Assembly: GCA_016187395.1 (NCBI GenBank)
Contig: JACPJV010000033.1
Span: 2,151-66,150 of the forward strand
DNA: 64,000 nt
DNA from: Candidatus Aenigmatarchaeota archaeon
GTDB lineage: Archaea; Aenigmatarchaeota; Aenigmatarchaeia; GW2011-AR5; JACRAC01
Reading direction: 5' to 3'
Position numbers and translations under genes: made by a program. This document shows positions 1,206 to 61,601 of this stretch, in pieces (the stretch's first letter is position 1; each line of letters starts with the position of its first letter). A model generated the notes under the pieces. It had not been told where the DNA came from and searched no databases. It was given only the letters and a program-made list of their open reading frames with translations.

Positions 1206-1297
1206 GTCATATTATATGAATGCAAGGATAAATTTCTGACAGCAAGAACGCTTCAACACACTTATATTTTTCAGGCGCGAATTAGGGAGGTGGTTTT

Positions 1298-2377: not shown

Positions 2378-2378
2378 T

Positions 2379-2759
2379 ATGAGAAAAATATTAGCGACTT
2401 TGGCATTGCCACTTGTTTTGGCAGGATGCGGAGGAACACAGAAGCAGGATATTGTACGAACTGAATATTTCGGAAATATGGAAGTAACTAGATATTCCGA
2501 CCGCATAGAAATCCGTGCCCCTATTATTGTAAGACCGTTGGGAGGGGAGGAAAGAGTAAGCGGCTACACTATTTTGAGTGATACGCGACCTTTCGGGCGG
2601 TACAACCCTGAAGACAAGGGGTGGTTCGTGTGGACGGAAGGGACTTCCAGAGAAACGGCTAAAGTTGAAGACGAGCTTGACAGCAAAACGGTTGAGGAAG
2701 GTATGGAAAGTACAGTTCGTATCTTAAGGTCAAACGGTTACGACTATCCAGGTGAATAA
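2379..2759 (+). CDS. putative lipoprotein (paralog 2)
   Basis: MRKILATLALPLVLAGCGG carries the same lipobox as the upstream gene, and the protein ends in YPGE. The ATG at 2379 sits just after the upstream stop and is preceded by aggtga. Confidence 0.6.
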   Translation: MRKILATLALPLVLAGCGGTQKQDIVRTEYFGNMEVTRYSDRIEIRAPIIVRPLGGEERVSGYTILSDTRPFGRYNPEDKGWFVWTEGTSRETAKVEDELDSKTVEEGMESTVRILRSNGYDYPGE

Positions 2760-2761
2760 TC

Positions 2762-3886: not shown

Positions 3887-3963
3887 GTGATTTTACGGAC
3901 ACTTATCAGAACAATTATTGGAAGCTTGTAGAACTGGAAAGAAAAGCAAATTCATCAGACGAA

Positions 3964-4278
3964 GTGCCTAGCGAAACAACGTTGGCATGGCATTGCGGCC
4001 TTGATCAAGAAAGAGCAGAATTAGTGAGAGAACACGTAGAATATTGTGCAAAAAGATTCAGGAGTATCGGAAACGGAGTGATAAATGTTCTTCCAGTGCT
4101 TGGAGCAATTGCAGGGGTGTCCTTTGCAGAAAATCCGGTTGTTGGAGCGCTTTCAGGTTTTGGAATCGGCATTGTGGCTAGATCATTTCTGGGAGCAATT
4201 ATCTACACCTCCTCTACAAGACAAAGCAGAAACAGCACTTTAAACAAAATACCATATGAGATGAAAAGCCTGATTTGA
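3964..4278 (+). CDS. small membrane protein, hypothetical
   Basis: 104-aa ORF with a GTG start and Gly/Ala-rich hydrophobic segments. Confidence 0.4.
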   Translation: MPSETTLAWHCGLDQERAELVREHVEYCAKRFRSIGNGVINVLPVLGAIAGVSFAENPVVGALSGFGIGIVARSFLGAIIYTSSTRQSRNSTLNKIPYEMKSLI

Positions 4279-4286
4279 TACTGATG

Positions 4287-5288
4287 CTATTTCGCAAATC
4301 CCTTCAGAAATTCCCCGAGATTTCCCAGGCCAGGTATTTCTATCCTGTTTAAGTTAGTTCCCTGAGGAATGTATTTCATTCCAAGGAATACTCCCAGCGC
4401 CTGGGCTCTTTGATCCTGAGTAAGCTTGTCGCCAACGCCCTCCAGAAATCTCTCAACGTTTTCTTTTACGCCCTTTGCATCAGCTTCTGCTTTGGTGAAA
4501 GCAGTATATGCATCTGCATCGGCCAGAACCCTCCTGGCAGCAGCCTCCTGCTCAGCCTGGAACCTTCTTGACAGCGCTGCCTCGTCTTCCTCTGCAAGGT
4601 TGATTATTATTCTTGGAGCCTCTATGCGCAGGTTCAATTCTCTTGCCAGTTCTCTGTTCAGCTCAGGGAGTTTCTCTCTCACTTCCCTGGGTAGTTGTTC
4701 CTTCCCGTCCATAACGTCGTAATTCTTCGCCATTGCATTCACATGTTCAATGAACCTGTCTTCAGCAGAAGGAACAGCCTGCGATTCTCCGGTTTCCGTC
4801 TCTCCAAAATCCCTTGTAAAGCCCACCAGGAATCGCTGCAAGTCAGGATCGTCATCAATCACGTCTCTCGGAATGTCAGTAAGATTATAGACCTCTTTTG
4901 CACTGTCCCTCGCATACGCCTGATATCGGGGATTGCCTCTAAGAACTTTTCGCGCATCAAGGCGCAGGAACAGGCTTATGTCCATAGTAGCCCTTCCCAA
5001 TCCCTTGAACTCCACCTCTGCATCCTGCTTCTCTCTCCTTGCAGCCGCAAGATTCACTATGTAACCTGTGTCATTGATTGTTTTTACATAGATAATCTTC
5101 CCTCTGGAAGCTGCCGAGTATCGCTTTGTCCATGAATTATAAGATATAGCCACGTGCGTATCAGGAACCTCTCTGATTCCTACCCACTCTACCATGCCCC
5201 TGGCTTTGCTTCGCTGTCCATTTACTTCATCCAGCCTATATTTAGTAACAATCTGGTCTTCTTTCAGCACACCCAGCCTATGAACCAT
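4287..5288 (-). CDS. hypothetical protein with an Ala/Glu-rich coiled-coil C-terminal half
   Basis: 333-aa ORF. The C-terminal AEQEAAARRVLADADAYTAFTKAEADAKG stretch is faintly reminiscent of SPFH/flotillin tails. The family is not established. Confidence 0.6.
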   Translation of the reverse strand: MVHRLGVLKEDQIVTKYRLDEVNGQRSKARGMVEWVGIREVPDTHVAISYNSWTKRYSAASRGKIIYVKTINDTGYIVNLAAARREKQDAEVEFKGLGRATMDISLFLRLDARKVLRGNPRYQAYARDSAKEVYNLTDIPRDVIDDDPDLQRFLVGFTRDFGETETGESQAVPSAEDRFIEHVNAMAKNYDVMDGKEQLPREVREKLPELNRELARELNLRIEAPRIIINLAEEDEAALSRRFQAEQEAAARRVLADADAYTAFTKAEADAKGVKENVERFLEGVGDKLTQDQRAQALGVFLGMKYIPQGTNLNRIEIPGLGNLGEFLKGFAK

Positions 5289-5784
5289 TGTAACTACCTT
5301 TCAGTATTAACAATAGCAAAGTATTAAAGCCTTTGCATAGCTCACGTTTCTGTCATCCCGGCGGTGTGCCAAAACTAACCTTTCTATATTTTACAAAACA
5401 TTAAGGCGGAAAATCGAAGCCTTCTGCGTGTTTGTCAAATCTTGGTATGCTAACAAACGCATTTGACACCGTTTCTAAATAGGAATAGAAGGCTTTTTAC
5501 ATAGTCTGCTACTGAATGTATCTTTCGAGGTATATCCCGTAATCTAATGATTTCTCTCCAGACCGAATCGAAGCTGTTCATTTTTCCCGAACGTTACGTT
5601 TATGAAAAGTGAACAAGAACAAGCTGGCAAATGCACGGGAAGAGAACATCAGGAACAGAGCGAAGCTGAGAAGAAACGGCATGCTGATTGCAGACCTAAG
5701 TTCATACCCTCGAAAGGGCACCGGCTTTGCTGTGACATAGAAACGTATTAATACATTCTGGAGAAAATAGCAGTAGGTGTTCAG

Positions 5785-6006
5785 ATGCGAATGAATTCAA
5801 GGTTGGATGCAGTTGAAAAGAAAATAGAAGGACTTAAGATAAGCTCGGTGAAAGAAGGAGCAAGAAATAATTTTATCAAGGCTGCCGGAAGCTGGAAGGA
5901 TGTTGACACAGAAAAGCTGAAAAGGGACATTTACGAATCAAGGAAAAAAGCTTTTAATAATGTTGTCCATAATGATGCATATGAAACATGGAAGAAAGTT
6001 GTTTGA
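5785..6006 (+). CDS. small charged protein, possible antitoxin-like
   Basis: 73-aa ORF with an AGSWKDVDTEKLKRDIYESRKK motif resembling small archaeal antitoxin tails. It is convergent with the PIN gene, so it is not an operon partner. Confidence 0.35.
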   Translation: MRMNSRLDAVEKKIEGLKISSVKEGARNNFIKAAGSWKDVDTEKLKRDIYESRKKAFNNVVHNDAYETWKKVV

Positions 6007-6079
6007 CGATCCCGAATTGGACAAGTTAGTGAAAGAAATCAGGCGCAGGCATATAGTGGATAAGGTTAATTACAAGAAA

Positions 6080-6520
6080 CTATAAATCTCCAGGGTGTAT
6101 TATTTTTACCTTGAATTCGTTCTCCAGTCTCACATTTTCGAGCAATTTTTTGTCGAAGGTTACAAACGTATCCCCATTGTCTTGGATGCAGTTCGCAAGA
6201 TGAATCGCATCTGTATCTTCGACTCTGGAATCCGTCTCTTTTATTCCGTCGACTAATCTGATGCTGTCATGCCTTAAGGCGGAAAATCTTATTTTTCTCC
6301 TTTTTATCAGATTGTCCATAAAACTGAAGAGAAGATGCCTTTCTTCAGATTTTTCTACATCCCTAAATGTCACCATGAAGAACTCTCCTATTACTGAAAG
6401 CGGTGCTATACCTCTATACTTATACCCGACTCTGTTCAGGTAATCTGAGCACTGATTCCCCAATCCGGTGTCTTTGTTGGCTTCAAAAAGTATGCCTGTA
6501 TCGATAAAATGCAGCGGCAA
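6080..6520 (-). CDS. PIN-domain protein (VapC-like)
   Basis: TTG start preceded by aggaggt. The acidic positions fit a PIN fold (FIDTGIL, ..E.., DTDAIHLA, TFD). Confidence 0.7.
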   Translation of the reverse strand: MPLHFIDTGILFEANKDTGLGNQCSDYLNRVGYKYRGIAPLSVIGEFFMVTFRDVEKSEERHLLFSFMDNLIKRRKIRFSALRHDSIRLVDGIKETDSRVEDTDAIHLANCIQDNGDTFVTFDKKLLENVRLENEFKVKIIHPGDL

Positions 6521-6658
6521 CCTTTCGAACCTCCTTTATATCTTTTCCATGATTTTTGGTTTCATTGAAATATGTTATTTTATGCGGGTTAAAAAGTAGT
6601 GGACAAACCTTGCATTCTTTTTCTAACCTATTTATTGCGCCTTTCGTCTAATTAATTG

Positions 6659-9600
6659 ATGGCGACAACGGGAGACAAAGATAGAGAGCGCTCTCGACTT
6701 TTGGCTGAATTGCATAAAAAATTCCCTCACCTGAAAGAGGAGATTAACAAGGCAAAAAATGCAATATTCCGCGCCCATGCGCTTGCAAAAAGGCACAGAA
6801 AAAACCCGCACAGGGCGCGGCACGAAATCGGCTACATGGTCCAGTCAGGCCTTCTGCCCGCGCAGATAGCCAGGCATTTTTTAGAGATGTTATTAGAACC
6901 TTGGGAACCTGCCGGCGAGAATATAGATGTAGAACTTCCTTTGAAGGCAACGAGGCAGGCAAGGGAAGGCGGAGGTGGCGGGAGCAGGCTTGGAACATCA
7001 GAACAGGAAATAGAAAATGTATGGAACAGACTCCTTCCGCTCAGAGGCGAAGATATAGTTAAAAAAGAGTTGAGAAGGCTAAAAAGAGACTACCACCCTG
7101 ATGGATACCCGAACCCGGCAGACAAAATTATCGGAGAGATTGTATTCAAGGAAATCGGAAGAATAGAAAGTCTTCTCAAGTCTTTATTATGGGTGCCTAC
7201 AGTTGCGTATTCTAAATATTACAATTTCACAAGAAGTCCGTTTGGCGCAACCGAGCCTTCTCCTGAAGAAGCCGAAGAACCACAGGCTGCTCCTGCAGCC
7301 GCAGCAGCTGGCGCAGGAACTGGTGGTGGCGCAGGCGCCCCGCCACAACCACCGCCAGGCCCAGCCGCTGCCGGCGGAGGGGCAGGCGGCGGACGCAGGA
7401 GATGGAAATGGGGATTTGGAAGGCGGGCTGCGGCAGCCGCCGGTGCTGCCGCCGCAGGCGCTGCTGCCGGCGCTGCAGCAGGCGGCACCGCAGGAGGAGC
7501 AGCAGGAGCAGGCGGCGCAGGCCAGCAGGCGCCACCTCCAGGCAGGTCCAATTTCAGTGGCATTGTCTATGTAAGATCGCCGCGCTGGGCGACCAGAGAG
7601 GCAGGGAAAGGATACCCTGAGCAGGCGCCAGCTGCTCGCACGAGGCGCTTTGCATTCGGAACAAGAAGGCTTCCGGGCGCATCTGTGGAATGCAAGGGAA
7701 GACGCGCAGAGACAAATGTATTGGGACAGTTTGCATTCTATAATCTTCCGCCCGGCGCAGCAGAAGCAAAGATAAAATACGGAGACTACGAGAAAAGTTT
7801 CAGCGTAACCCTGACTCCTGGAGAGAACTTCAGGGAATTTGTTCTGGACATGTCTCCGGAATATGCCGAGGCAGGGCTGAAGATAGAAAGGTCCAGGAAA
7901 TTCATGAAGGCGCGCAGCAAGCTTGCACCGCGAATGCCCATTGCAGTTTTTGCCTCGCGAATAAGAAAGGCATTGTTCGCAGAAGGAAAAAAATTTTATT
8001 TAGACAAGAAAAAAGAGCTTGACAGCCTGATAAAGCAGGAAAAAGACGACAAAGATATGCTCGAAGGAGCCCTTGACGCAATGGATGCAGAGATAGAAGG
8101 CGAAAATAGAGAAAAATTCAGACAAAACAGGGAAAAGATAATGTCAGGGGCAATAGGCGCAGCAGCCGGCGCAGGCGAAGAAGGAGCTGCAGTCGGCAAA
8201 CTTTTAGAGGCTCTTTCCAAGGTGTCGCAGAACAGGGAGAATAGAGCAAAAACCCAAAGGCTTATAAACAACGTAGAATTCTGGCAGAAAACACTTCTTC
8301 AGAGAAGAAAAGGGATAGAAGGAATTGCAGACAAATTCGAGGACCAGGTAGAGAAGCACCTTAATGAATTCATGGAAGGGCTTGTGGGAGAGGTTGCAGG
8401 AGAGTACGGCAGGGAATACAATCCACAGGACGTTGAGAATTTGAAATTATGGATGAAGAAGTATGTCGCACTATACTCAAGGCATTACACAAAGCTTTTC
8501 AAGACAGGCAAGGGAATGCTGCGTTTCAAGGCTTTCGCTGGCCAGGGATTTCTTGGCGCAGGTGCCTACGGCATGGGCGCTCGTGAAATGCTCAATACGA
8601 TCGTCAAGGACTGGTGGGGCGTCTGGTTGTGGCCTCTGCTTAACTTATTCGTCCCTCCGCTTGGCTGGATCGTTCTTATCATATGGGCGATAATGAAGAT
8701 ACCTCTTGCGTCATCAGTGGTAGTGCTGTGGCTGCAGGTCGGCTTCCTTGTCGGCGGCACCATATTGGGATTAGCCTCGCTGCCGGGTTATACAGCAGCA
8801 GCCACGCTGACGCAGCTGCTGATTTTAGGGTTCATAGGAGGCGTGCTCAACTGGATTCTTAACATGCGGACGCAGGTTTCAGTAGGCCCTCTTTTTGAGG
8901 GCACACCATTCGGGACAATACTGCAGCAGTTTAGCCACATCACCGCAGGCGCCATGATATTCATTGGAGTCGGCATCTTCACAATGAGCCTGCAGCTTGG
9001 CCTTCCTGGCGTGGAGGGAATAGCGCTTATGGCAGGTGTTATATTATTATTCGCATTCCTCCTGCCGCCTGAGTATCTCTCTATGCTCATCATCGTTTTC
9101 ATAGTAATGGCAGGATTTTTCCCTGCGCTCGGCGGCGCAGCTACTGCAGTCTATGGAATCTTCGTAATAATGGGCATGACAAACTTCTATCCTGTGAGCG
9201 GTCTCGGCGGCATGAACGTAATTGCGCTTGCGGTTCTTGTTTTTGGTTATTTTGCACTTGGTCCTTACAGCGCCTTTGTGATAGATGCAATGAGCCAGAT
9301 CAAAGCGCCTATAACCTTTGCAGTAAACCAGGCAAAGGTCGCATTTAGTGACGTCTGGCTTTTGCTAACAAATCCTACAGCTTATTATCAGTCCCAGCAG
9401 TTCCGGCAGGTGAGGGCAGAGAGGCCTATCAGCTTTCCAGAAGGCGTGGAGATCACGCGTCTGGACGCAGTGCCGGACGGCACCGTGCCTGCAGGACAAC
9501 CCTTTGTCGTTTTTGCAGTCGTTGAAAACAGGGGAGACCAGGTTGCAGAGAACGTGCGGGTAACCGCGCAGTGCTCGCCAGGAACTCCTGCAAGCGCCAA

Positions 9601-10891
9601 GTGCAGTGTCTTGGACAGGAATGGCAATCCGGTTCTGATAGAAGGAAGAAAACTGGGAAGCCTTGGTCCCCGTGAGGTGAAGAGCATTGAGTTCAGGTTT
9701 GCTGCAAACCACAGGATAGACGATCCAAACCGCATAGCAGAAACCGTCTTCAACAGGGTTAACGTGAGCGTTGCTTATAATTATGATACTTCATCGCGCC
9801 TGCAGGTGGAAGTCGCGACAGAACAGGAAGTGCAAAGAAGGCAGCTGAATAACGAGCCTGTCTTTGTTCCTATTCCGGCAGTAGGCAAGGTAGGGCCTGC
9901 GCAGCTTTCTGTTTACGTGGGTCCTCAGCCGCTTTTGTTTGGTCAGACTGCAGAAGAAGAAACAATCCAGCAGGAAAAGCTGATTGTTGCAGCTATCTCC
10001 AATGCGCGGCCTGACGCAGAGATTGTCGTGTGGAAGGGAATCGAATGGAACATAACACTTTCAGAAGGGCTGGGCACAAACCTGCGCTGTTCAGAAGTAT
10101 CCTGCTCGATAATAGACACAAGAAAAGTCCAGTGCACGTTCAGCAGGGAAGATACGATAGCAAGCCGCAAAGCTGAACAAGAGGAAGAAGCCTTGAGAAG
10201 CGCGAGCAGAAGCGAAATATTCTTTGAAAAGGCCGGAGATGTGGTCGAATATCTGATGTATCTTGGAAACCAGCCTGAGCAGCAGACCGGCGATGTTCAT
10301 GTCATCAGGCCCTATGAATTCAAAGATTATTGGGTGCAGGTCTGTGAATTCACGCCAGATGCTGTTCTTGAAAACTCAAGGACAGGGATAATCACATCCA
10401 CGCTTGAAGACTATATTGTTCACCTGAACAAGGAAAAGAGCGTTGCAGTAGGCCCGCCTCTTGGGATAATCGGCGAGGAAGTCAAGCCAGAAGCGCCGAC
10501 ACTAGACCTGACCGTTGATATTTTGGCAACAGGGGAAAAGATGGTCAAGCTGGAGTGGACAGACAACAGCGACAATGAGAAAGGATTCAGGATATACAGG
10601 CAGAAGGAAGGCGAAGGCTACATACAGCTGCTGGAGATGCAGCCAGGCAACACCAGATTTGTAGACGATTCTTTCGCAAAAAGATTTCTGCAGGTTAAAG
10701 GGCAGCCGTACATACCTGGAACGATTCTTGCCTCGGAGTTTCCGAAAAAATACAAATACCAGGTGCGATCATTCAATTCCGCAGGCGAAGCCTCTTCCAT
10801 AGAGAAGAACATCGAAGTCATTCTTATTACGCAGAGAAATGCGCAGGGAGCGGATATAGTCCAGGATATGGACATAATAATTATTCCATGA
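6659..10891 (+). CDS. giant multidomain membrane protein: J-like domain, A/G/P-rich linker, polytopic membrane core, CARDB-like and FN3-like C-terminal domains
   Basis: ~1410-aa ORF. It contains LRRLKRDYHPDGYP (HPD at 7094-7102), a low-complexity tract at 7270-7545, and about 10 hydrophobic helices at ~8610-9380. It also has a CARDB-like PFVVFAVVENRGDQVAENVRV stretch and an FN3-like stretch (KLEWTDNSDNEKGFRIYRQ...YKYQVRSFNSAGEAS). Confidence 0.85.
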   Translation: MATTGDKDRERSRLLAELHKKFPHLKEEINKAKNAIFRAHALAKRHRKNPHRARHEIGYMVQSGLLPAQIARHFLEMLLEPWEPAGENIDVELPLKATRQAREGGGGGSRLGTSEQEIENVWNRLLPLRGEDIVKKELRRLKRDYHPDGYPNPADKIIGEIVFKEIGRIESLLKSLLWVPTVAYSKYYNFTRSPFGATEPSPEEAEEPQAAPAAAAAGAGTGGGAGAPPQPPPGPAAAGGGAGGGRRRWKWGFGRRAAAAAGAAAAGAAAGAAAGGTAGGAAGAGGAGQQAPPPGRSNFSGIVYVRSPRWATREAGKGYPEQAPAARTRRFAFGTRRLPGASVECKGRRAETNVLGQFAFYNLPPGAAEAKIKYGDYEKSFSVTLTPGENFREFVLDMSPEYAEAGLKIERSRKFMKARSKLAPRMPIAVFASRIRKALFAEGKKFYLDKKKELDSLIKQEKDDKDMLEGALDAMDAEIEGENREKFRQNREKIMSGAIGAAAGAGEEGAAVGKLLEALSKVSQNRENRAKTQRLINNVEFWQKTLLQRRKGIEGIADKFEDQVEKHLNEFMEGLVGEVAGEYGREYNPQDVENLKLWMKKYVALYSRHYTKLFKTGKGMLRFKAFAGQGFLGAGAYGMGAREMLNTIVKDWWGVWLWPLLNLFVPPLGWIVLIIWAIMKIPLASSVVVLWLQVGFLVGGTILGLASLPGYTAAATLTQLLILGFIGGVLNWILNMRTQVSVGPLFEGTPFGTILQQFSHITAGAMIFIGVGIFTMSLQLGLPGVEGIALMAGVILLFAFLLPPEYLSMLIIVFIVMAGFFPALGGAATAVYGIFVIMGMTNFYPVSGLGGMNVIALAVLVFGYFALGPYSAFVIDAMSQIKAPITFAVNQAKVAFSDVWLLLTNPTAYYQSQQFRQVRAERPISFPEGVEITRLDAVPDGTVPAGQPFVVFAVVENRGDQVAENVRVTAQCSPGTPASAKCSVLDRNGNPVLIEGRKLGSLGPREVKSIEFRFAANHRIDDPNRIAETVFNRVNVSVAYNYDTSSRLQVEVATEQEVQRRQLNNEPVFVPIPAVGKVGPAQLSVYVGPQPLLFGQTAEEETIQQEKLIVAAISNARPDAEIVVWKGIEWNITLSEGLGTNLRCSEVSCSIIDTRKVQCTFSREDTIASRKAEQEEEALRSASRSEIFFEKAGDVVEYLMYLGNQPEQQTGDVHVIRPYEFKDYWVQVCEFTPDAVLENSRTGIITSTLEDYIVHLNKEKSVAVGPPLGIIGEEVKPEAPTLDLTVDILATGEKMVKLEWTDNSDNEKGFRIYRQKEGEGYIQLLEMQPGNTRFVDDSFAKRFLQVKGQPYIPGTILASEFPKKYKYQVRSFNSAGEASSIEKNIEVILITQRNAQGADIVQDMDIIIIP
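7270..7545 (+). repeat. GC-rich low-complexity Ala/Gly/Pro-coding tract inside the giant ORF
   Basis: Runs of gcagc/gccgc/ggcgg units are open in several frames on both strands (track ORFs 7203-7574, 7219-7563, 7227-7535, 7402-7620). Confidence 0.8.
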
Positions 10892-22034: not shown

Positions 22035-22826
22035 CTAGTAAACCCTGAAGTCAATGCGATACTTGAAAATCCTTGGCCCCCATGGAAGCACTTTCTGTAC
22101 CTGCAAAAAATTTATCCTCCTTTTTATTGAATTTCTAATCTTAGCCTTTTCCGCTTTTATTTCGTCCTCCCTGCAGAAACAGTAGTAGTGAATTAGTGCA
22201 TTTTTCTTCGCGCATTTTTCTGCGCTATTTAAAAATTCTTTTGCCTTCTCTGGAAGGGGCATTATTATCCTGTCAAATTCACCCCTGTATTTTGTCGCAA
22301 GCTTTTTCACGTCGCCTCTTTCAATCTCCACCATATCTTCCACCTTATTCAATGTCGCATTTTTCCTGAAATATTTCACAGCTGAAGGATTCAACTCTAT
22401 GCCGGTGACTTTCGCAGGCTTCGCTTTCTTTGCAATCACTATTGCAAATGGTCCTACGCCTGCAAAGAATACAGCAACTTTTTCGCCCGGCTTTACCTTT
22501 TCAGCTATTCTCATCCTTTCAGTAGATTCACGTGGGGAGAAATATGCCTTTCTCACATCCAACAGAAACCTGCACCCGCTTTCTGCATGCACAACCTCTG
22601 TATTCTTGCTTCCTGCTATTATGCGATAAGCACGCTTTCTATATTTACCCTTTCTCGGCCCTGCCTTCATCAGGACGCTTTTCACGTTCTTGTGCCTTGC
22701 CATGATTTCTTTTGCAGCTCCCTTGGCATTCCTCGCTTTTTCCATTATAGCCACGGCGCCCTCGCGGGAACCTATTATTTCAAATGCAGGGAGTTTTGAC
22801 ATTATAAGTCTTTGGGTTTCATACAT
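22035..22826 (-). CDS. Trm5/Taw22-type (Met-10+ like) tRNA methyltransferase
   Basis: FLLDVRKAYFSPRESTER, VAVFFAGVGPFAI and TGIELNP match the TRM5/TYW2 family. Confidence 0.8.
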   Translation of the reverse strand: MYETQRLIMSKLPAFEIIGSREGAVAIMEKARNAKGAAKEIMARHKNVKSVLMKAGPRKGKYRKRAYRIIAGSKNTEVVHAESGCRFLLDVRKAYFSPRESTERMRIAEKVKPGEKVAVFFAGVGPFAIVIAKKAKPAKVTGIELNPSAVKYFRKNATLNKVEDMVEIERGDVKKLATKYRGEFDRIIMPLPEKAKEFLNSAEKCAKKNALIHYYCFCREDEIKAEKAKIRNSIKRRINFLQVQKVLPWGPRIFKYRIDFRVY

Positions 22827-24330: not shown

Positions 24331-25125
24331 GTGTTTACCATGGCGCAGGAATATCACGAGGCGCATGGCTCTTATCTTGGCATGAACTGGGCATACGTAT
24401 CAGACAGAGGTTCACGGCGCGAAAACAACGAAGACCGCGCTCTCGTCAGGGAGATGCCGGGGAGGTTGTTTGCAGTAGTTGCAGACGGCATGGGAGGGCA
24501 TGCAAACGGCGAGTTCGCATCAGGGGTTGTGACAGAAGCACTCGGAGATTATTTCTCTGCCAACGCGCATGGCACAACCGCCGATTCAGCGGCATATGCA
24601 AACAGGGTTCTCGCAGAAAAAATCGGAAGTATGGAAGGAAGGCCTGGAGCAGTCGCGGTCTGGTGCGTTGCAAGGCGCGAAAGCGGCGTTTATACCGCAG
24701 AATTGGGCAACGTAGGAGATACAAGGGCGTACAGGATAAGCCCCGATTCCATCACACAGCTTACAGAAGACCAGAGCGCTGTCAGAGAGCTTCGAAAGCA
24801 GGGTAAATGGAATCAGATGGGTCCTGCTGAAAGGAAGAGGATGGCACACGTAGTTACTAACGCATTCTGCAATGAGTTCAGGCCTGAAGAGGTTCAGGCC
24901 ATAAGACTGGAGCTCGCGCCAGGAGATTATCTTGCGCTTTTCTCAGACGGCGTGCACGGAGAGGATGAAGGCAGTGATTTCCGCCGCTTCCTCAGCGACG
25001 ACGAAATAGCGGCAGTTGTCCGCTCCCAGGACGACCTTATGCAAAGATGCAGTAGCGTGGTTCATAGTGCCATAGAGCGCGGTTCAAGGGATAACGCCAG
25101 CGGCCTGCTTCTTTATTTTACATGA
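24331..25125 (+). CDS. PP2C-family Ser/Thr phosphatase
   Basis: RRENNEDRALV, VADGMGGHANGEFAS and SRDNAS motifs. Confidence 0.85.
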   Translation: MFTMAQEYHEAHGSYLGMNWAYVSDRGSRRENNEDRALVREMPGRLFAVVADGMGGHANGEFASGVVTEALGDYFSANAHGTTADSAAYANRVLAEKIGSMEGRPGAVAVWCVARRESGVYTAELGNVGDTRAYRISPDSITQLTEDQSAVRELRKQGKWNQMGPAERKRMAHVVTNAFCNEFRPEEVQAIRLELAPGDYLALFSDGVHGEDEGSDFRRFLSDDEIAAVVRSQDDLMQRCSSVVHSAIERGSRDNASGLLLYFT

Positions 25126-25325
25126 TTGGCAAATCCAAGGGTTGTCGAGTAATTCGTTTTTCTTCGCCTTCTGGAGTGAAGCGAAGAAAAACCCATCTGG
25201 TTTCCCAGAAGCAGTTTTTTCTGCCTTCATTTTTAGGGGCTGAAAAAATTGCCTCATACCTATTTATTAGGCAACCCCGCAAATCCACACATACCTTTTT
25301 ATCATTCACAACCAAAAATTGTTCT

Positions 25326-26798
25326 ATGGATGAAAGTCAGGGACAAAAAACCAGGGAAAACAGGAGAGAGCTGGGCATAACAGCCTCCAGGGAGAAGGAT
25401 TTCAGCGAGTGGTATTCGCAGGTCATACTGAAGTCAGAGCTTGCAGATTATACGGCAGTAAGCGGATGCATAGTTTTCAGGCCTTACTCCTATACTATAT
25501 GGGAAATTATCCAAAAGCATCTTGATTCAAGGCTGAAAAAAGCAGGGGTAAAGAATGCATATTTTCCCTTGTTCATACCGGAAAGCCTTCTTGCAAAGGA
25601 GAAGCAGCACGTGCAGGGATTCAACCCAGAGGTTGCCTGGGTCACGCATGCAGGAGAAACCAAGCTCGGAGAAAGGCTTGCAATAAGGCCTACATCCGAG
25701 ACAATCATGTACGATTCCTATGCAAAGTGGATACGCTCTTATAACGACCTGCCTCTTCGCATAAACCAGTGGAACAATTCAGTGAGATGGGAGTTCAAGC
25801 ATCCCGTGCCTTTTCTGCGCACACGCGAGTTCTTGTGGCAGGAAGGACATTCTGTCTTCGCAACGCAAAATGAAGCAGAAAAGGAGGTGCTGCAGATGCT
25901 TGGTTTGTACGCAGAGGTTTATGAAAAATTACTGGCCGTTCCTGTTGTAAAAGGCAGGAAAACCGGGAGGGAGAAGTTTGCAGGCGCAGAATATTCGACA
26001 AGCATCGAGACATTCCTGCCAATAGGCAAGGCCATACAGTGCGCCACATCTCACTTTCTCGGCCAGAACTTTTCAAGGACATTTGAAATAACCTATCTTG
26101 ACAAAAGCGGCAAAAGCTTGCACCCCTGGCAGAACTCGTGGGGTATTTCAACCCGTAGCATCGGAATCGCAATAATAATGCACGGCGATAACAAAGGATT
26201 AGTTCTCCCGCCAAAAGTCGCCCCTATCCAGATCGTGGTAGTACCCATAGTTTTCGAGAAAAACAAAGACCTTGTAATCAAAAAGGCCGGGGAAATCGCG
26301 AAAAAACTGTCAAAATTCAGGGTGCATTTAGACGACAGAGACAATTATACGCCCGGCTGGAAATTCAACGAATGGGAGCTTAAGGGAGTTCCGTTGAGGA
26401 TTGAAATCGGGCCCAAAGACATGGAGAAAAAACAGGTTGTTGTCGTGCGCAGGGATACAGGAGAAAAAATGTCTGTCCCGTTTGAATCTGTTGGCAAAAA
26501 AATCGCTTCGCTGCTCGACGATATCCAGGAAAACCTGTACAGAAGGGCAAAAGACCGCATGGAAAAAAGCACGGTTGAAGCGAAAAGCTGGCAGGAGTTT
26601 CTGAAGAACGCAGATTCCAGGAGATGGGTAAAAGCCCTGCATTGCGGCGATCCAAAATGCGAGGAAGAAATACAGGAGAAGACGCAAGGAGTGAAGGCAA
26701 ATTGCATTCCTTTTGACCAGCCGAAAAAGACCAGGGACAGATGCGTCCACTGCAATAAGCCTGCGAAATATGAGGTTCTCTTTGCGAAGAGCTACTGA
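25326..26798 (+). CDS. proS: prolyl-tRNA synthetase (archaeal type)
   Basis: Class II motifs and FSEWYSQVILKSELADY at the N-terminus. The start was set at MDESQ rather than at the track's upstream extension. Confidence 0.9.
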   Translation: MDESQGQKTRENRRELGITASREKDFSEWYSQVILKSELADYTAVSGCIVFRPYSYTIWEIIQKHLDSRLKKAGVKNAYFPLFIPESLLAKEKQHVQGFNPEVAWVTHAGETKLGERLAIRPTSETIMYDSYAKWIRSYNDLPLRINQWNNSVRWEFKHPVPFLRTREFLWQEGHSVFATQNEAEKEVLQMLGLYAEVYEKLLAVPVVKGRKTGREKFAGAEYSTSIETFLPIGKAIQCATSHFLGQNFSRTFEITYLDKSGKSLHPWQNSWGISTRSIGIAIIMHGDNKGLVLPPKVAPIQIVVVPIVFEKNKDLVIKKAGEIAKKLSKFRVHLDDRDNYTPGWKFNEWELKGVPLRIEIGPKDMEKKQVVVVRRDTGEKMSVPFESVGKKIASLLDDIQENLYRRAKDRMEKSTVEAKSWQEFLKNADSRRWVKALHCGDPKCEEEIQEKTQGVKANCIPFDQPKKTRDRCVHCNKPAKYEVLFAKSY

Positions 26799-48269: not shown

Positions 48270-49508
48270 ATGAACATCCTCGAGAAAGCCTGCCTCATAT
48301 TGCAAAAGCCCGTTTGTGATCACTGCCTGGGCAGGCAGTTCGGCCAGCTGCTCAGCGGCACGAACAACGAAGAAAGAGGTACGCTATTAAGAAATGCAGC
48401 AGCTATGAGCATAGACAAGGAGAAATTAAATGAGGAGGATAAGCGGCTGGATTTGTCGAATTTTTCCGGGATTAGATTTCATTATCTGAAGGAAAAGATG
48501 CAGCAAAAGCCGTGCAGCGTATGCAGCGGCATCTTTAATGAGATTGAAAAATACGCAGGCAAGATTGCGGAAAAAACCAAAGGCATTGATTTTTCCACCT
48601 TTCTCATAGGCACAAAGCTTTCTGCACAACTTTTAGAGAACGAGGAGCAGCTCTGGGAACGCATAGGAATAGACTGGGCAGAGCAGCTTAAGGCAGAGCT
48701 GAACAGGGAAATAGGCAGAACGATTGAGAAAGCGCTGAGGAAAAAATTCAATCCAAAGAATCCGGACATCGCTTTTTTGGTTGATATCTCAAAGGGAGCA
48801 GTTTCTATCAGTATTAACCCGTTGTTTATTTATGGAGAATACCAGAAGCTTGCGAGAGGCATACCGCAGACAAAATGGCCTTCCGGAAAATACAAGACGA
48901 GCGTGGAACAGATTATCGCAAAGCCGTTTATGAGAAGAACGAGAGGAAAAGCGCACTCATTTCATGGAATGGGCAGAGAGGATATAGATGCCCGCTGCCT
49001 TGCCTGGAGGCCGTTTGTTCTTGAGATAAAGGAGCCGCAAATAAGGCATATGGACCTGAAAAAAACAGAGAAAGAAGTGAAAAAGGACAGAAGGGTGAAG
49101 GTGAGAAAGATGCGCTGCTCCGATATGAATGAAGTCCGCATGATAAAGGAGACGAGAGCAGACAAGACATACCTTGCAATTATAGAATGCAGGAAAAAAA
49201 TAGACAAGCTTCTAATCCGAAAACTGCCTTCTCTGAAGACAGAGATAAGGCAGCGCACGCCTGAAAGGGTCTTGCACAGGCGCGCAAACCTGCTGAGAAG
49301 ACGGAATGTGAAGATGATAACAGCCAGGCTTCTAAGCGCGAAAAAAATGCAGCTTAAGGTGAAGACAGACGCAGGCCTTTACGTCAAAGAGCTTGTAAGC
49401 GGCGATGGAGGCCGTACAAAACCAAGCCTTTCAGAATTGCTTCAAAATGAATGCGTATGCAAGGAGTTGGATGTGATAAAGATCGAGATTCCGAAGAGGA
49501 AAAAATAA
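48270..49508 (+). CDS. pus10: tRNA pseudouridine synthase Pus10
   Basis: N-terminal CDHCLGRQFG zinc motif, GREDIDARCLAWRPFVLE and C-terminal RTPERVLHRR...GLYVKELVSGDGGRTKPS. Confidence 0.9.
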   Translation: MNILEKACLILQKPVCDHCLGRQFGQLLSGTNNEERGTLLRNAAAMSIDKEKLNEEDKRLDLSNFSGIRFHYLKEKMQQKPCSVCSGIFNEIEKYAGKIAEKTKGIDFSTFLIGTKLSAQLLENEEQLWERIGIDWAEQLKAELNREIGRTIEKALRKKFNPKNPDIAFLVDISKGAVSISINPLFIYGEYQKLARGIPQTKWPSGKYKTSVEQIIAKPFMRRTRGKAHSFHGMGREDIDARCLAWRPFVLEIKEPQIRHMDLKKTEKEVKKDRRVKVRKMRCSDMNEVRMIKETRADKTYLAIIECRKKIDKLLIRKLPSLKTEIRQRTPERVLHRRANLLRRRNVKMITARLLSAKKMQLKVKTDAGLYVKELVSGDGGRTKPSLSELLQNECVCKELDVIKIEIPKRKK

Positions 49509-49758
49509 TTCCCGGATTGCAGCACCATAATCTTCAATATTCATTAGGCAGACACATCGAAAATCAGGTTGCCTGAAGGGTGGCTGTTTCCAGTGATGAA
49601 TCAAATTCTTGAGATGAAACAATCTGTCCCTAAGCCTCACTGATTGGTAGGGCTTCCTACTGAAATATCTTGTATGCGATGTCTGAAAATGTTAGAAGAT
49701 AGCAATATTCACAGAATTACCAATAAGAATAAATACTTATTGGACTTGAAGTTCTAGT

Positions 49759-50529
49759 ATGAGGTTTCCAAGCTATACATTATATGTAACTGTGGTGATA
49801 GTGGTTCTTGCAGCTGCAGCAGGGATTTTTGCACTTTCAATTCCTGGAGGAATGACAGGAACAGGAGGAGTGGCTTCAAATACAGCAGAAGAAGCATCTG
49901 CAAGCAGTCCAGAACCAACTGCTATCGAAGAACAGGCAGAAACGCAAGAGAATACACCAGTCCAGGAAACAGAAACGCCTGAAGAAGAGTCGCAAATGGA
50001 TTCCTTATTCGTCCCTGTAAGCGATCAGCCTGATCTGGCTGTTCTGAGCATAGAATATAAACCCCAGCTTCCTAAAACAACCGAACAGGTTACATTCACT
50101 GCTTTGATTCAAAACATCGGAGGAAAGGCTGCGCAGGTAAGAAGGTACAAGCTTCTGCCGCTTGTTGAAACAGCATCTGAGATAAGCTCAGCAACAGTCG
50201 GAAAAGACATATTGCAGCCAGGAGAAACAACCGAAATAAAATCGATATGGGATATTGATGTCACAGGAATCATAACAGTTGTAGCATCTATAGATGTATT
50301 CGACGAGGTGGCAGAATTCGACGAGACTAATAACGAATTAAGGATAAAATTCAGAATGCAGCCTGCGAACGGCTTTGTAGGATGCAGCAGCTTGAAAACA
50401 AATGTATGCGATTCTGTTTTGGAAGTGGAGCCTGCTTATTTCGAAAATAATCCTCAGTGTGCGCAGATAACCTGCGACAACGGCCCTACAGTAATGTGCG
50501 ATTCTGCCTGCCCGCACCCGAGGGAATAG
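49759..50529 (+). CDS. secreted protein with a CARDB-like domain and a Cys-rich tail
   Basis: N-terminal anchor/signal sequence, an acidic linker and DLAVLSIEYKPQLPKTTEQVTFTALIQNIGG. Confidence 0.7.
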   Translation: MRFPSYTLYVTVVIVVLAAAAGIFALSIPGGMTGTGGVASNTAEEASASSPEPTAIEEQAETQENTPVQETETPEEESQMDSLFVPVSDQPDLAVLSIEYKPQLPKTTEQVTFTALIQNIGGKAAQVRRYKLLPLVETASEISSATVGKDILQPGETTEIKSIWDIDVTGIITVVASIDVFDEVAEFDETNNELRIKFRMQPANGFVGCSSLKTNVCDSVLEVEPAYFENNPQCAQITCDNGPTVMCDSACPHPRE

Positions 50530-50595
50530 TGAAAATCTTTCTATATCATCATTATGGAAAACAATCTTATAAGCAGGCAAAATGCTCATAGTCAT

Positions 50596-51295
50596 ATGAC
50601 ACGAATTTTAGGGATCGATGAAGCCGGCAGAAGGCGTTAGCTATGACTAATGCTTGCCGTTAGGCGCAATCATCGGCCCTCTTGTTTTGTGCGGCTTTCT
50701 GGTTGAGGAAGAGGAATCAGACCTCCTCAAAAAAATTGGCGTGAAGGACTCTAAACAACTAAGCCCGCGCAGGCGTTCTTTTCTCTACCAGAAGCTGAAG
50801 AAAACAGGGCATGCAAAGATTATCAAGCTTTCTGCCTCTGACATCGACAGGCTTCGCACAGAGCAGAATCTGAATAAAATAGAAATAAGCCATATGCAGC
50901 AGATTGTGAACGCACTAAAGCCGGACATTGTTTTTGTAGATTCCGTCGAATCCAACACGGAGAAATTCTGCCATAAGCTGCTTGCAAAAATTGATGATAA
51001 AGAAAAATACGAGTACGGCAATAATTTCATCTGCGAGAACAGGGCAGACGTAAATTATCCGGTAGTAGGTGCGGCTTCAATAATTGCAAAAGTCGTGCGT
51101 GACGCAGAAGTGAGCAAGCTGCATAAATACGGCTACTTTGGCAGCGGCTATCCAAGCGACCCGCGGACGATGGAATTTTTAAAAAAATGGCTGTCTGAGA
51201 AAGGATCCATGCCGTCGTTTGCAAGAAGCTCATGGATACCTGCAAAGCAGCTGAAGAAAGATCATGAGCAGAAAAGGCTCGGAGAGTTTGCCTGA
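50596..51295 (+). CDS. rnhB: ribonuclease HII, reading frame interrupted (segments 50596-50631 and 50663-51295)
   Basis: The first segment reads MTRILGIDEAGR. The second reads GAIIGPLVLCGFLVEE...DSKQLSP...VDS...AASIIAKV. Joined, they give the canonical RNase HII N-terminus. Confidence 0.8.
50632..50662 (+). other. 31-nt insert in rnhB with stops in all three frames and a BHB-like fold
   Basis: The insert is aggcgttagctatgactaatgcttgccgtta. It is bounded by aggcg direct repeats and has an internal 8-bp hairpin (50633-40/50647-54). Confidence 0.7.
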
Positions 51296-51326
51296 TTATT
51301 TATACTTTGCTTTTGAAAGATAGCCT

Positions 51327-51593
51327 ATGGAACTTAGGCAGAGAAGGATCAACACAGCCATATTTGCAATTATAGGAGCCGTGGTGGGATACTTGTCATT
51401 TCTGATAAACTCCCCCCCTCTTTCATTGCTTCTGGCGATTGCAGTGATGGTAATCTCGGTCTTTGCTGTCAAAAAGATCTTCTCAATAAGCGAGAAGAAG
51501 TGGTGGTCGAGCCCTGTTGTTCTCTACATAACAACGTGGATAGTCGTATGGGCTATATTCTTCAACATCTATATAGTGCAAGCCCCTGTTTAG
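51327..51593 (+). CDS. small three-helix membrane protein
   Basis: 88-aa hydrophobic ORF. Confidence 0.55.
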   Translation: MELRQRRINTAIFAIIGAVVGYLSFLINSPPLSLLLAIAVMVISVFAVKKIFSISEKKWWSSPVVLYITTWIVVWAIFFNIYIVQAPV

Positions 51594-51657
51594 AATTGAC
51601 CGGGGTTTTCTTGTAATACTTTAATATGTTTCAATTCAATATTCTCAAGGTTATACC

Positions 51658-52965
51658 ATGCGCACGCATATGGCTTCTGACATGGCAAAAGAGAAGGACG
51701 GATCCAAAGTCATATTAGGAGGCTGGGTAGATTCTGTGAGGGAGCACGGGAGCCTTGCTTTTTTGATTATCCGCGACAGCAGTGGAACTGCCCAGATAAC
51801 CGCAAAGAAAGGCGCTGTTGACGGGCTAATTTTGAAAACAATAAAGAGCCTTGTGAAGGAGTCTGTTGTTCTCGTGGAGGGCGTCGTGCACAGAACAGAA
51901 AGGACAGAGCGCGGCGTGGAGATTGTACCGAAGAGGATAGAGATTTTAAGCGTCTCCGAGAAGATTCTGCCTTTGGACCCGAACGTCGAATCTGAGTTGG
52001 ATACAAGGCTTGATTGGCGGCCTATTGATTTAAGGAAACCACAAAATTTAGCTATTTTCAAAATTCAGGCAAAAATTCTGGAAGGTTTCGAAGGATACTT
52101 AAGAAAAGAAGGATTCATCCAGATTTTCACCCCCTGTATATTAGGTGGCGCTTCTGAAGGCGGTGCCGAGATTTTCAAATTGAAATATTACAAGACTAAA
52201 GCCTTTTTAAGACAAGATCCGCAACTTCATAGACAGCTCACATTAATAGGTGGTTATGATAAAATCTTTGATATAGGACCAAGTTGGCGTGCTGAAGAAT
52301 CCAGAACTCCGCGCCATTTATCTGAACATAGAGGAGTTGCACCGGAAATTTCTTTCATTAAGGATGAAACTGATATAATGAGACTTGAGGAACAAATGAT
52401 CGTGAATGCAATGAAAAAGGTGAAAGAAGAATGCGAAAATGAATTGAAAATACTTGGTAAAGAAGTCAAATTGCCAAAACCGCCTTTTCCAGAACTGCGA
52501 TTTCCAAAAATCTATGAAATTCTAGAAAATTTAGGAAAAAAAATCCCTTTTGGAGAAGATTATGACAGGGAGTCTGAAAAACTCTTATACGATTATGTAA
52601 AGGAAAAATACAAAAGTGAATTCTTTTTTGTTAATAGATTTCCATTCGCAGCTAAACCATTCTATGTAATGAAGGTAGACGGAGAACCCCAATGGGCAAG
52701 AAGTGTTGATTTGATTTTTAAAGGTATAGAACAAAGTTCCGGAGGGCAACGGGAGCACAGGCATGAAAAACTGTTAGGGAATATTAAAGACAAGAAAATG
52801 AAAATGTCAGATATAGAATGGTTTGTTAAGCACTTCAAATACGGCGTACCACCGCACGGCGGTTTTTGCATAGGCATAGAAAGATTTACTATGCAGCTTT
52901 TAGATATAGAAAATATTAAGGAAGCGGTTTTATTTGCGAGGACCCCGGATAGACTCATACCTTAA
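51658..52965 (+). CDS. aspS: aspartyl-tRNA synthetase (archaeal type)
   Basis: N-terminal OB fold (GWVDSVREHGSLAFLIIRDSSG) and class II motifs (FRAEESRTPRHLSEH, GGFCIGIERF). Confidence 0.92.
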   Translation: MRTHMASDMAKEKDGSKVILGGWVDSVREHGSLAFLIIRDSSGTAQITAKKGAVDGLILKTIKSLVKESVVLVEGVVHRTERTERGVEIVPKRIEILSVSEKILPLDPNVESELDTRLDWRPIDLRKPQNLAIFKIQAKILEGFEGYLRKEGFIQIFTPCILGGASEGGAEIFKLKYYKTKAFLRQDPQLHRQLTLIGGYDKIFDIGPSWRAEESRTPRHLSEHRGVAPEISFIKDETDIMRLEEQMIVNAMKKVKEECENELKILGKEVKLPKPPFPELRFPKIYEILENLGKKIPFGEDYDRESEKLLYDYVKEKYKSEFFFVNRFPFAAKPFYVMKVDGEPQWARSVDLIFKGIEQSSGGQREHRHEKLLGNIKDKKMKMSDIEWFVKHFKYGVPPHGGFCIGIERFTMQLLDIENIKEAVLFARTPDRLIP

Positions 52966-60731: not shown

Positions 60732-61003
60732 TGCCCCCGCCGAGAGTTTCGCCAATCCCATTTCATATTACCGGAGCGAAGCTCCGAAAGTTCTTTTGGG
60801 GTTCTCCAAGACCTTTTCTTTCAAGAAAAGGGATTGGATTCGAACTCGGGTTTCAAGGTATCTGCAATTCAAATACCGCAACCTTGTGTCCTATTTGCTT
60901 CCAAGCGAAGTCTTCCGCGCGCAGCTGGTTCGCTGCGGTCGGCGTGTATTATTTCTCCCTTGCTCACGCACGCTGCGCTTGGACCAGGCTAGACTACGAG
61001 GGC
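60732..61003 (-). tRNA. tRNA-Arg (anticodon GCG) with three introns: 60895-60983 (D-loop), 60860-60875 (37/38), 60746-60838 (59/60)
   Basis: Acceptor GCCCTCG/CGGGGGC, U8, A14, G18G19, D-stem GTCT/GGAC, anticodon arm CAAGG-TTGCGG.A-CCTTG, T-arm CCGAG-TTCGAAT-CTCGG, discriminator A. Each intron sits in a helix-bulge-helix-bulge-helix fold. The spliced product is 74 nt. Confidence 0.85.
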
Positions 61004-61085: not shown

Positions 61086-61241
61086 ATGAGATGCTCATCT
61101 TGCAATCTTGAATTAGAAACAGAGGAAAGGTGGACCCGGTTCAAGTGCCCTGCCTGCGGAGAAAATGAAATAAAACGCTGCGACACCTGCAGGAAGCGAG
61201 GCATCCTTTACAGGTGCGAGTGCGGCTTTGAAGGGCCGTAA
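61086..61241 (+). CDS. 51-aa double zinc-ribbon protein (the type often found next to EF-1beta)
   Basis: Hand translation gives MRCSSCNLELETEERWTRFKCPACGENEIKRCDTCRKRGILYRCECGFEGP. Confidence 0.7.
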   Translation: MRCSSCNLELETEERWTRFKCPACGENEIKRCDTCRKRGILYRCECGFEGP

Positions 61242-61301: not shown

Positions 61302-61354
61302 GAAAAGTTCTTTTGGGGTTCACCAAGACCTTTTCTTTCAAGAAAAGGGATTGG
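61302..61354 (+). repeat. copy of the tRNA-Arg T-loop-intron segment, forming the EF-1beta leader
   Basis: gaaaagttcttttggggttcaccaagaccttttctttcaagaaaagggattgg compared with 60786-60837 shows one indel and one substitution. It contains the 9-bp palindrome ccttttctt-tca-agaaaagg. Confidence 0.8.
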
Positions 61355-61355
61355 T

Positions 61356-61601
61356 ATGGGAAAAGTTGCCATTACTTTCAAGGTAATGCCCGAATCTGCT
61401 GATGTGGATATAGAGGAAATAAAGGGTAAGATAGAACAGTTAGGTGCGAAGCAGATTCACACAGAAGAAATAGCCTTCGGGCTAAAAGCCCTGAAAGTCC
61501 TGTTTGTTGTCGAAGACAAGGAAGGACAGGATATGGAAGGCAGGCTCTCTTCAATAAGTGGAGTAGGGTCAATAGAAACAGAGGCAATAACCAGATTGTG
61601 A
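61356..61601 (+). CDS. translation elongation factor aEF-1 beta
   Basis: MGKVAITFKVMPESADVDIEEIKGKI...IAFGLKALKVLFVVEDKEG has typical aEF-1beta size and sequence. Confidence 0.9.
   Translation: MGKVAITFKVMPESADVDIEEIKGKIEQLGAKQIHTEEIAFGLKALKVLFVVEDKEGQDMEGRLSSISGVGSIETEAITRL

Follow-up and report, generated by a model that had tools for sequence, protein, structure and literature searches.

A probable bulge-helix-bulge intron within the coding sequence of the RNase HII gene (rnhB) of a Candidatus Aenigmarchaeota archaeon

We analyzed the RNase HII gene (rnhB) on a 64-kb stretch of contig JACPJV010000033.1 of a Candidatus Aenigmarchaeota archaeon; this whole stretch of 64,000 nucleotides (nt) is hereafter called the window, and positions are numbered from its first base. 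The coding sequence of this rnhB gene very probably holds a functional bulge-helix-bulge (BHB) intron, which interrupts the catalytic DEAGRG motif. The evidence comprises the interruption itself, its conservation among relatives, an RNA structure with covariation, the restoration of the reading frame, and the codon patterns of the exons. An earlier reading of the window (the original prediction) had found a 31-nt insert in rnhB and proposed that it was an mRNA intron, a small insertion making a pseudogene, or an assembly artefact. The first of these proposals is strongly supported by the occurrence of the insert in 18 sequences, by apparent selection on the exons, and by compensatory changes in the hairpin of the insert.

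Translation from the ATG at 50596 gave MTRILGIDEAGRRR, followed by a TAG at 50638–40, while the remainder of RNase HII was encoded in a different frame by an open reading frame (ORF) at 50654–51295, with a TTG start (MPLGAIIGPLV...). Deletion of 31 nt gave MTRILGIDEAGRGAIIGPLV..., a protein of 222 amino acids (aa) in which DEAGRG was regained. The spliced protein matched the Pfam RNase_HII profile from position 1 to 197 of 199 (E = 3.6e-46). Thus, both the interrupted frame and the restoration of the RNase HII N-terminus by removal of 31 nt, as described in the original prediction, were confirmed. The insert had also been said to contain stops in all three frames: those in frame 0 (TAG 50638, TGA 50644) and frame +1 (TAA 50648) do lie inside it, but the frame +2 stop (TAG 50661–63) spans its 3' boundary. 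The aggcg direct repeats, thought earlier to bound the insert, are spaced by 30 and not 31 nt and are unconserved at the other loci; they are incidental. The nearest database entry (P0001), an NCBI-annotated RNase HII of Candidatus Aenigmarchaeota archaeon, comprises 213 aa counted from the TTG at 50654, and its annotation omits the catalytic Asp-Glu of the DEAGRG motif. No second rnhB was found within the 64-kb window.

Among the 120 best homologs, 19 had no recognizable DEAGRG near the N-terminus. The same N-terminal mis-call was seen in most of them, the annotated protein starting immediately past the motif, and several opened with (M/L)PLG(P/C)V(I/V)GP, a peptide that results from translating the 3' end of the insert. 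The window, the DNA of 11 truncated homologs besides P0001, and one metagenome pattern scan together provided 18 distinct rnhB sequences with approximately 50–55% protein identity, originating from independent NCBI metagenome-assembled genomes, JGI and ENA metagenomes, and Logan assemblies. The comparison with the rnhB of relatives, suggested earlier as a check, thus revealed a homologous insert at the same site in 17 further distinct sequences. Its position was identical in 18/18, between bases 2 and 3 of the Arg or Lys codon of DEAG(R/K)G. The inserts were 28, 29, 30, or 31 nt long, covering all three phases, and an in-frame stop accompanied every one of them. In each of the 18 sequences, excision brought back DEAG(R/K)G together with the reading frame (one of them, L099, was read by hand here and in the structural comparison below).

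The exons of these genes were well preserved. The exon 1 peptide (I/V)(L/C)GIDEAG(R/K) was kept in 18/18, the variation being mostly confined to third codon positions, and the catalytic residues of exon 2 were invariant in an alignment including the interrupted genes. An ATG, GTG, or TTG start was located 3–5 codons upstream of the peptide in 17 of the 18 sequences; several of these starts were preceded by a GAGGTG-like motif resembling a Shine–Dalgarno sequence. In L082 (approximately 325–363) and L083 (approximately 741–779), exon 1 lacked all three of these start codons in the stretch from the upstream stop to ILGIDEAGK; ATT GTA, preceded by a GGTGAT motif, was present instead, so the start may be non-canonical (possibly ATT) or damaged. 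Scanning a genome collection for RNase HII with the single spliced protein produced no matches. An alignment-based scan of the collection recovered 80 loci from many archaeal phyla, none of which had an insert at the site; these loci served as controls.

The BHB-like fold proposed in the original prediction was identical to the minimum free energy (MFE) fold of 50612–50678 (−25.4 kcal/mol, z = −2.49, 4 of 200 shuffles as stable). The BHB architecture was common to 18/18 sequences: two bulges on opposite strands with a central helix of 4 base pairs (bp) between them, fully paired in every case. The 5' bulge was 3 nt long in every model (AGA in 15, AAA in 2, and AAT in 1 of the 18 sequences), and its three columns were left unpaired in the RNAalifold consensus as well. 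The bases of the 3' bulge vary (TTA, TAA, TGA, AAG, ATA), with the third one always completing an Arg or Lys codon. The inner helix had 7–10 pairs, contiguous in 15/18 sequences and with one mismatch in L082, L085, and L096. The inner stems were essentially unlike in sequence, e.g., AGGCGTTAG/CTAATGCTT, GAATTCAGC/GCTGAATTT, and AGATGATA/TATCATCT. The coordinates of all elements in the window are given in Table 1.

Covariation was evaluated in an alignment of 17 sequences (A2; window coordinate = 50604 + column). With the best model, 95.9% of the cells were paired, compared with 81.8% in shuffles and 31–51% with the partners slid by 1–3 columns; 46 cells in 10 pairs were changed on both sides, and these values were reached by 0 of 500 shuffles. 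In the inner stem, 96.7% of the cells were paired and 7 of the 9 pairs had changes on both sides. Compensatory pairs were also present in the central helix: CG 16 and UA 1 in columns 21–55, and UG 12, CG 4, and AU 1 in columns 24–52. The outer exon–exon helices were 92.4% paired, being weakest in the window itself; their pair in columns 18–62 (third base of the Glu codon and first base of a Pro or Cys codon) covaries, with GC in 9 and AU in 4 sequences. The inner stem and the 3-nt 5' bulge were both reproduced by an independent RNAalifold run. The recurrence of the insert in 17 further distinct sequences, accompanied by compensatory base changes, puts it far outside what chance would produce.

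The mean energy over the 17 sequences was −17.2 kcal/mol for the RNAalifold consensus (3-bp central helix, 4-nt 3' bulge), −16.4 kcal/mol for the 4-bp central helix with a 4-nt 3' bulge, −14.2 kcal/mol for the originally predicted fold, and −12.5 kcal/mol for the strict form (3-nt 3' bulge, 1-bp outer helix). As modelled, the central helix, the 5' bulge, and the two cut positions of the BHB motif are canonical, and its outer 3' side is slightly relaxed, or dynamic. A generic strict-BHB scanner combined with a frame-restoration test, applied to both strands of the window, recovered the rnhB intron amid hundreds of chance matches.

The cut positions could be specified further. Bases 50631 and 50662 are both A, so that deletion of 50631–50661 or of 50632–50662 gives the same mRNA. 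With the helix CGGC (50625–28)/GCCG (50656–59), cleavage behind the second nucleotide of each bulge excises precisely 50631–50661, both cuts being two nucleotides 3' of the 4-bp helix on their own strand. The central helix of L089 is TGGA/TCCA, a double compensatory change, and standard cuts at this locus give GGA AAA GGT with a Lys codon. Cut sites at the corresponding register of the original prediction (50632–50662) were rejected because they would put Asn in L089; in 101 intact homologs, the motif residue was Arg (90) or Lys (11) and nothing else. Judging from this comparison, the intron most likely corresponds to 50631–50661 rather than 50632–50662: the mRNA product expected earlier stands, and the register moves by one base. 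It had been noted as a caveat that the second bulge has 4 nt and that a strict rule would excise 29 nt and leave a TAG; this difficulty is gone with the helix, drawn earlier as GGCA/TGCC, placed one bp further 5' (C50625–G50659). An endonuclease of relaxed specificity, invoked in the original prediction, is not strictly needed, because the one-bp shift of the 4-bp helix places both cuts at the canonical distance.

In intron-bearing genes, unlike intron-less ones, the synonymous sites of the two exons favour the bases needed for pairing. The Ala codon of the motif was GCC in 17/18 intron-bearing versus 6/34 intron-less genes, and the Gly codon was GGY in 17/18 versus 17/37. CGN codons for Arg were absent from intron-bearing genes (0/16) and present in 12 of 33 intron-less ones. 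On the exon 2 side, Val was encoded by GTC in 15/18 versus 10/37 and Ile by ATC in 13/18 versus 6/37 genes. The distal helix GAYGA/TCATC was fully paired in 12 of the 18 intron-bearing genes, compared with 4 of the 39 intron-less ones. Two intron-less close relatives for which DNA was available had CGC for Arg and no TCATC complement.

The following sequence of events would account for these features. In the pre-mRNA, CGGC of exon 1 (50625–28) would pair with GCCG of the intron (50656–59), forming a 4-bp helix flanked by the 5' bulge AGA, the 3' bulge UUA(G), the 9-bp intron hairpin, and the exon–exon outer helices. The archaeal tRNA splicing endonuclease (EndA) would cleave at 50630|50631 and 50661|50662, leaving 2',3'-cyclic phosphate and 5'-OH ends, and the ligase RtcB would join the exons into GGC AGA GGC, encoding the DEAGRG active-site motif; the 31-nt intron would probably be circularized by RtcB. 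The unspliced mRNA would give only a 14-residue peptide or an enzyme without the first two catalytic residues. Cleavage by EndA with ligation by RtcB is established for tRNA and rRNA introns as well as for the cbf5 and HVO_1309 mRNAs (PMC2738675, PMC7714728, PMC10485636), and DPANN endonucleases with broadened specificity have been documented (PMC5829648).

The window also contains a tRNA-Pro(UGG) gene with a BHB-type intron, and splicing machinery is therefore expected in this organism. This tRNA was found in a permissive Rfam run; it was missed by the Rfam default filters and by ARAGORN, which detected no tRNAs either in the window or in 16 of the loci. The splice motif of the tRNA-Pro, the one intron-containing tRNA found, consists of a 3-bp helix between 2 × 2 internal loops; it is relaxed and less canonical than that of rnhB. 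An endonuclease able to process such relaxed substrates should exist in this organism. The tRNA-Pro gene adjoins a gene of a Trm5-family methyltransferase (22035–22826), and a ProRS gene (25122–26798) is located about 2 kb away.

Several points weigh against the proposed intron or against details of its model. The act of splicing and the identity of the enzymes are what we infer from established knowledge of BHB splicing. Neither EndA nor RtcB is encoded by any fetched locus or by the window, 44 ORFs of which were covered by Pfam scans, which is uninformative, the window being only a fraction of the genome; tblastn with EndA of M. jannaschii (sequence verified against PDB 1A79) also gave no match in the window and the fetched loci. 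The preferred cut register depends on the single locus L089. In the MFE folds, a 3-bp central helix is preferred, with a mean advantage of about 0.9 kcal/mol. The outer helix beside the 3' bulge is weak or ambiguous: a 3-nt bulge (C50624–G50663) leaves a single C–G pair, and the better-supported, covarying outer helix of 3–4 bp implies a 4-nt 3' bulge (UUAG). Finally, the intron-less genes used as codon controls come mostly from other archaeal phyla, and lineage effects may contribute to the differences.

Other explanations of the insert were weighed against the intron. If a small insertion had inactivated rnhB, leaving a decaying pseudogene, the in-frame stops after codon 14 and the NCBI annotation, which holds just the truncated ORF, would be expected, and the check for a second copy of rnhB, which was negative, covered the window only. 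This explanation, offered in the original prediction, is nevertheless effectively excluded: it is highly improbable that 18 distinct sequences at approximately 50–55% protein identity would share a same-site insert with compensatory changes in its hairpin, while both exons remain intact and look selected as coding, with invariant catalytic residues and a conserved start codon and peptide in exon 1. The window derives from a metagenome-assembled genome, which makes an assembly or sequencing artefact conceivable in principle. However, different projects and assemblers (NCBI, JGI, ENA, Logan) have yielded homologous, non-identical inserts at this very site; because these assemblies are independent, an assembly artefact, the third of the earlier proposals, is effectively excluded as well, and we give it practically no weight.

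An insert that is retained in the mRNA and skipped by the ribosome, either by translational bypassing of the phage T4 gene 60 type or by other recoding, is superficially suggested by the Gly-Arg codon pair followed by a stable hairpin and a nearby stop. It is about as improbable as the pseudogene: the take-off codon AGA or AAA has no match in the codon before exon 2 (TTA, TAA, TGA, AAG, ATA), what is conserved corresponds precisely to a BHB, with exon 1 paired with the 3' end of the insert as a 4-bp helix between bulges, and a codon split across the bulges (AG|A, AA|A, AG|G) fits cleavage and ligation and not hopping. The conserved RNA structure might also be mainly regulatory, blocking or tuning the translation of RNase HII, with splicing being partial, conditional, or performed by a different nuclease. 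Just 35 nt separate the start codon from the 5' cut downstream of it, so that the initiating ribosome and the fold would have to compete, and two near-isoenergetic conformers are predicted. A primarily regulatory role is very unlikely, although slightly less so than the pseudogene or bypassing; the frame-restoring geometry in 18/18 sequences points to removal as the selected outcome, and regulation, which has no independent support, is compatible with splicing rather than opposed to it.

Programmed ribosomal frameshifting and readthrough are excluded, since the insert lengths of 28–31 nt span all three phases and stops are present in the frames involved. A self-splicing intron of group I or II was rejected because its ribozyme core takes hundreds of nucleotides, compared with the 28–31 nt of the insert. 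Rfam gave no match at the locus, either at the gathering threshold or at E <= 1. An intein was also considered and rejected.

The BHB intron proposed for rnhB can be compared with several known systems. The intron of the cbf5 pre-mRNA is said to have been the subject of work by Watanabe in 2002 and Yoshinari in 2006. Like the rnhB intron, the cbf5 intron of Crenarchaeota is of the BHB type and interrupts the coding region of a housekeeping enzyme that acts on nucleic acids (Yokobori 2009, PMC2738675). Both are present in some lineages and absent from related ones, and both cause gene mis-annotation. The cbf5 intron is removed by the tRNA splicing endonuclease, as we infer for rnhB. The host gene is different, and it occurs in Aenigmarchaeota of the DPANN rather than in Crenarchaeota and Thaumarchaeota; the rnhB intron is a separate case and no homolog of the cbf5 intron. 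A relaxed motif has been reported for cbf5 (PMC10485636); in rnhB, the central helix and the positions of the two cuts are canonical. In contrast to cbf5, the rnhB intron is just 28–31 nt long and splits a catalytic motif and a single codon, and its presence or absence is much patchier, down to relatives with 98–99% identical flanks. Splicing of cbf5 has been proven experimentally; the rnhB intron is known here from sequence alone.

The intron of HVO_1309 in Haloferax volcanii (PMC7714728) is another mRNA substrate of EndA with a BHB motif, similar to the case proposed for rnhB; it is located in the 5' untranslated region, is found in a single species, and has experimental support, whereas the rnhB intron lies in coding sequence. 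Archaeal pre-tRNA and pre-rRNA BHB introns share with rnhB the 4-bp-helix geometry, the predicted cuts, and presumably the enzymes (EndA, RtcB), but in rnhB an mRNA is the host, with coding sequence forming the outer helix. HAC1/XBP1 splicing by IRE1 and RtcB or Trl1 also removes a short intron from a coding sequence by means of a protein endonuclease and a tRNA ligase, with a frame change. This is an analogy only: the nuclease is IRE1, the structure consists of twin stem-loops, and the reaction serves as a regulated switch under stress.

Only cbf5 and HVO_1309 are named as archaeal mRNAs spliced by the endonuclease in a paper of 2020 and a review of 2023, and of these two only cbf5 is interrupted inside its coding sequence (PMC7714728, PMC10485636). 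A structural paper of 2025 cites just the cbf5 work, and a splicing review of 2026 mentions no archaeal mRNA intron. In the searchable full-text literature, we found no link of RNase HII or rnhB with BHB introns and no BHB mRNA introns described for Aenigmarchaeota or DPANN. Within this literature, rnhB would be the second gene family in which a BHB intron interrupts the coding region, and the first from DPANN; the mechanism itself is ordinary. The 18 natural variants provide both the covariation support and a ready panel of substrates for studying endonuclease specificity. Gene callers systematically miss such introns, and more of them may exist.

A neighbour-joining tree was built from 160 RNase HII sequences. 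In this tree, genes with the intron were scattered singly among intron-less sisters throughout the Aenigmarchaeota-type clade; the intron-bearing L101 grouped with Woesearchaeota-like sequences, its placement being uncertain. The nearest relative of the window gene, P0002 (68% identity), was intron-less. The closest pair consisted of L084, with a 28-nt intron, and L105, without one, both from Logan assemblies with adjacent run accession numbers (SRR22388040 and SRR22387835). Their identity was 98–99% over the 5' flank and exon 1, 80.7% over the first 367 nt past the intron site, and 98.4% over the remaining 371 nt (breakpoint likelihood-ratio statistic of 71.8). This mosaic pair contains a recombination tract, one boundary of which coincides with the insertion site. 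Over the length of the tract, the allele without the intron was somewhat nearer to the next relative (0.86 vs. 0.80), so this single pair hints weakly that the intron may have arrived together with the tract. Protein-level scans of other intron-bearing/intron-less pairs revealed no clear mosaic; these pairs are too divergent to judge. Presence or absence of the intron between near-identical relatives makes gain and loss of BHB introns testable in natural populations.

An ORF of 338–339 aa was located immediately upstream of rnhB in three intron-bearing lineages (L090/L102, L089, and L082/L083), overlapping the rnhB start codon in L090. It was assigned to LAGLIDADG_3 (Table 1) and contains two LAGLIDADG motifs, GLWIAEGD and GFFAGEGN, in which the acidic residues are kept. 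In the L090 copy, the C-terminus also matched winged-helix families of Pfam weakly, with scores below the threshold, and comparison of the protein with solved structures gave no match. The ORF was absent from all intron-less loci examined and from the window. Since the alleles are interleaved across the tree, the L084/L105 tract begins at the insertion site, and, among the loci examined, the LAGLIDADG gene was found only beside intron-bearing rnhB, the mini-intron might be a mobile element, gained and lost by recombination starting at the insertion site and accompanied in some lineages by a free-standing LAGLIDADG homing endonuclease directly upstream. We consider such mobility unlikely. If it occurred, the LAGLIDADG enzyme would cut intron-less alleles at the DEAGRG-coding site, and the ORF-less intron would shield the host gene, an arrangement known as collaborative homing. 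An example is the psbA group I intron of cyanophages with the free-standing endonuclease F-CphI. As there, the intron in rnhB would be ORF-less and its presumed partner free-standing, the LAGLIDADG gene adjoining the interrupted gene in the three intron-bearing lineages; psbA/F-CphI, however, involves a group I intron in phage, and the rnhB case is known from the genes alone, with a window that has no LAGLIDADG gene. To our knowledge, collaborative homing has been described neither for BHB introns of archaea nor for archaeal protein-coding genes.

Table 1. Positions of the interrupted rnhB gene, its predicted RNA elements, and associated features (window coordinates unless a locus is named)
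Feature	Position	Strand	Remarks
rnhB exon 1	50596..50630	+	MTRILGIDEAG + AG (bases 1–2 of Arg codon); holds first catalytic Asp-Glu
BHB intron, 31 nt, preferred register	50631..50661	+	Homologous 28–31 nt inserts at same site in 17 other distinct sequences
rnhB exon 2	50662..51295	+	A (base 3 of Arg codon), GAIIGPLV... through stop codon
Central helix, 5' strand CGGC (last Ala-codon base + Gly codon)	50625..50628	+	Pairs with 50656–59
5' bulge AGA	50629..50631	+	Predicted cut 50630/50631
Inner hairpin	50632..50655	+	9-bp stem 50632–40/50647–55, 6-nt loop 50641–46
Central helix, 3' strand GCCG, within intron	50656..50659	+	Pairs with 50625–28
3' bulge UUA or UUAG	50660..50663	+	Predicted cut 50661/50662
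Exon–exon outer helices, 5' strand (Asp-Glu-Ala codons)	50617..50624	+	GAYGA/TCATC pairing, covariation
Exon–exon outer helices, 3' strand (Gly-x-Val/Ile-Ile codons)	50663..50674	+	Codon bias, pairing
LAGLIDADG ORF	L089 1928–2944; L090 1782–2801		Pfam LAGLIDADG_3 above threshold in both full-length copies tested
LAGLIDADG ORF	L102 10776–11792 (= L090 copy)	−	Directly upstream of intron-bearing rnhB
LAGLIDADG ORF	L083 1–747; L082 2–331		Upstream of intron-bearing rnhB
tRNA-Pro(UGG), intron of ~38–41 nt beside anticodon	22858–22969	+	Permissive Rfam run, 46.9 bits

In the window, the gene order around rnhB was Pus10, a CARDB protein, rnhB, an EMC6-like membrane protein, and AspRS (48270–52965). 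It was fully or partly common to intron-bearing and intron-less relatives (L093, L103, L105, L085, and L087). In L103, rnhB was flanked by extra ORFs of 359 and 260 aa, each without a Pfam match.

A direct repeat of 51 nt was found at 60787–60837 and 61304–61354; its copies are 98% identical, lie 517 nt apart, and each contains a hairpin with 16-nt arms. They are located in an ORF-poor stretch around a 51-aa zinc-ribbon-like ORF (61086–61241). One striking match of the strict-BHB scanner (60779–60809) falls in this repeat region and outside any recognizable gene. The second copy ends 2 nt ahead of an 81-aa ORF (61356–61601), which may be aEF-1beta from its appearance. In the region 447–10891, six tested ORFs, including one of 1411 aa (6656–10891), were without a Pfam match at E <= 1e-4. 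Elsewhere, the window encodes ordinary archaeal housekeeping functions: CCA-adding enzyme, FttA/aCPSF1, a proteasome subunit, FEN1, and CTP synthase, as well as Mre11/Rad50-like proteins and CDP-archaeol synthase.

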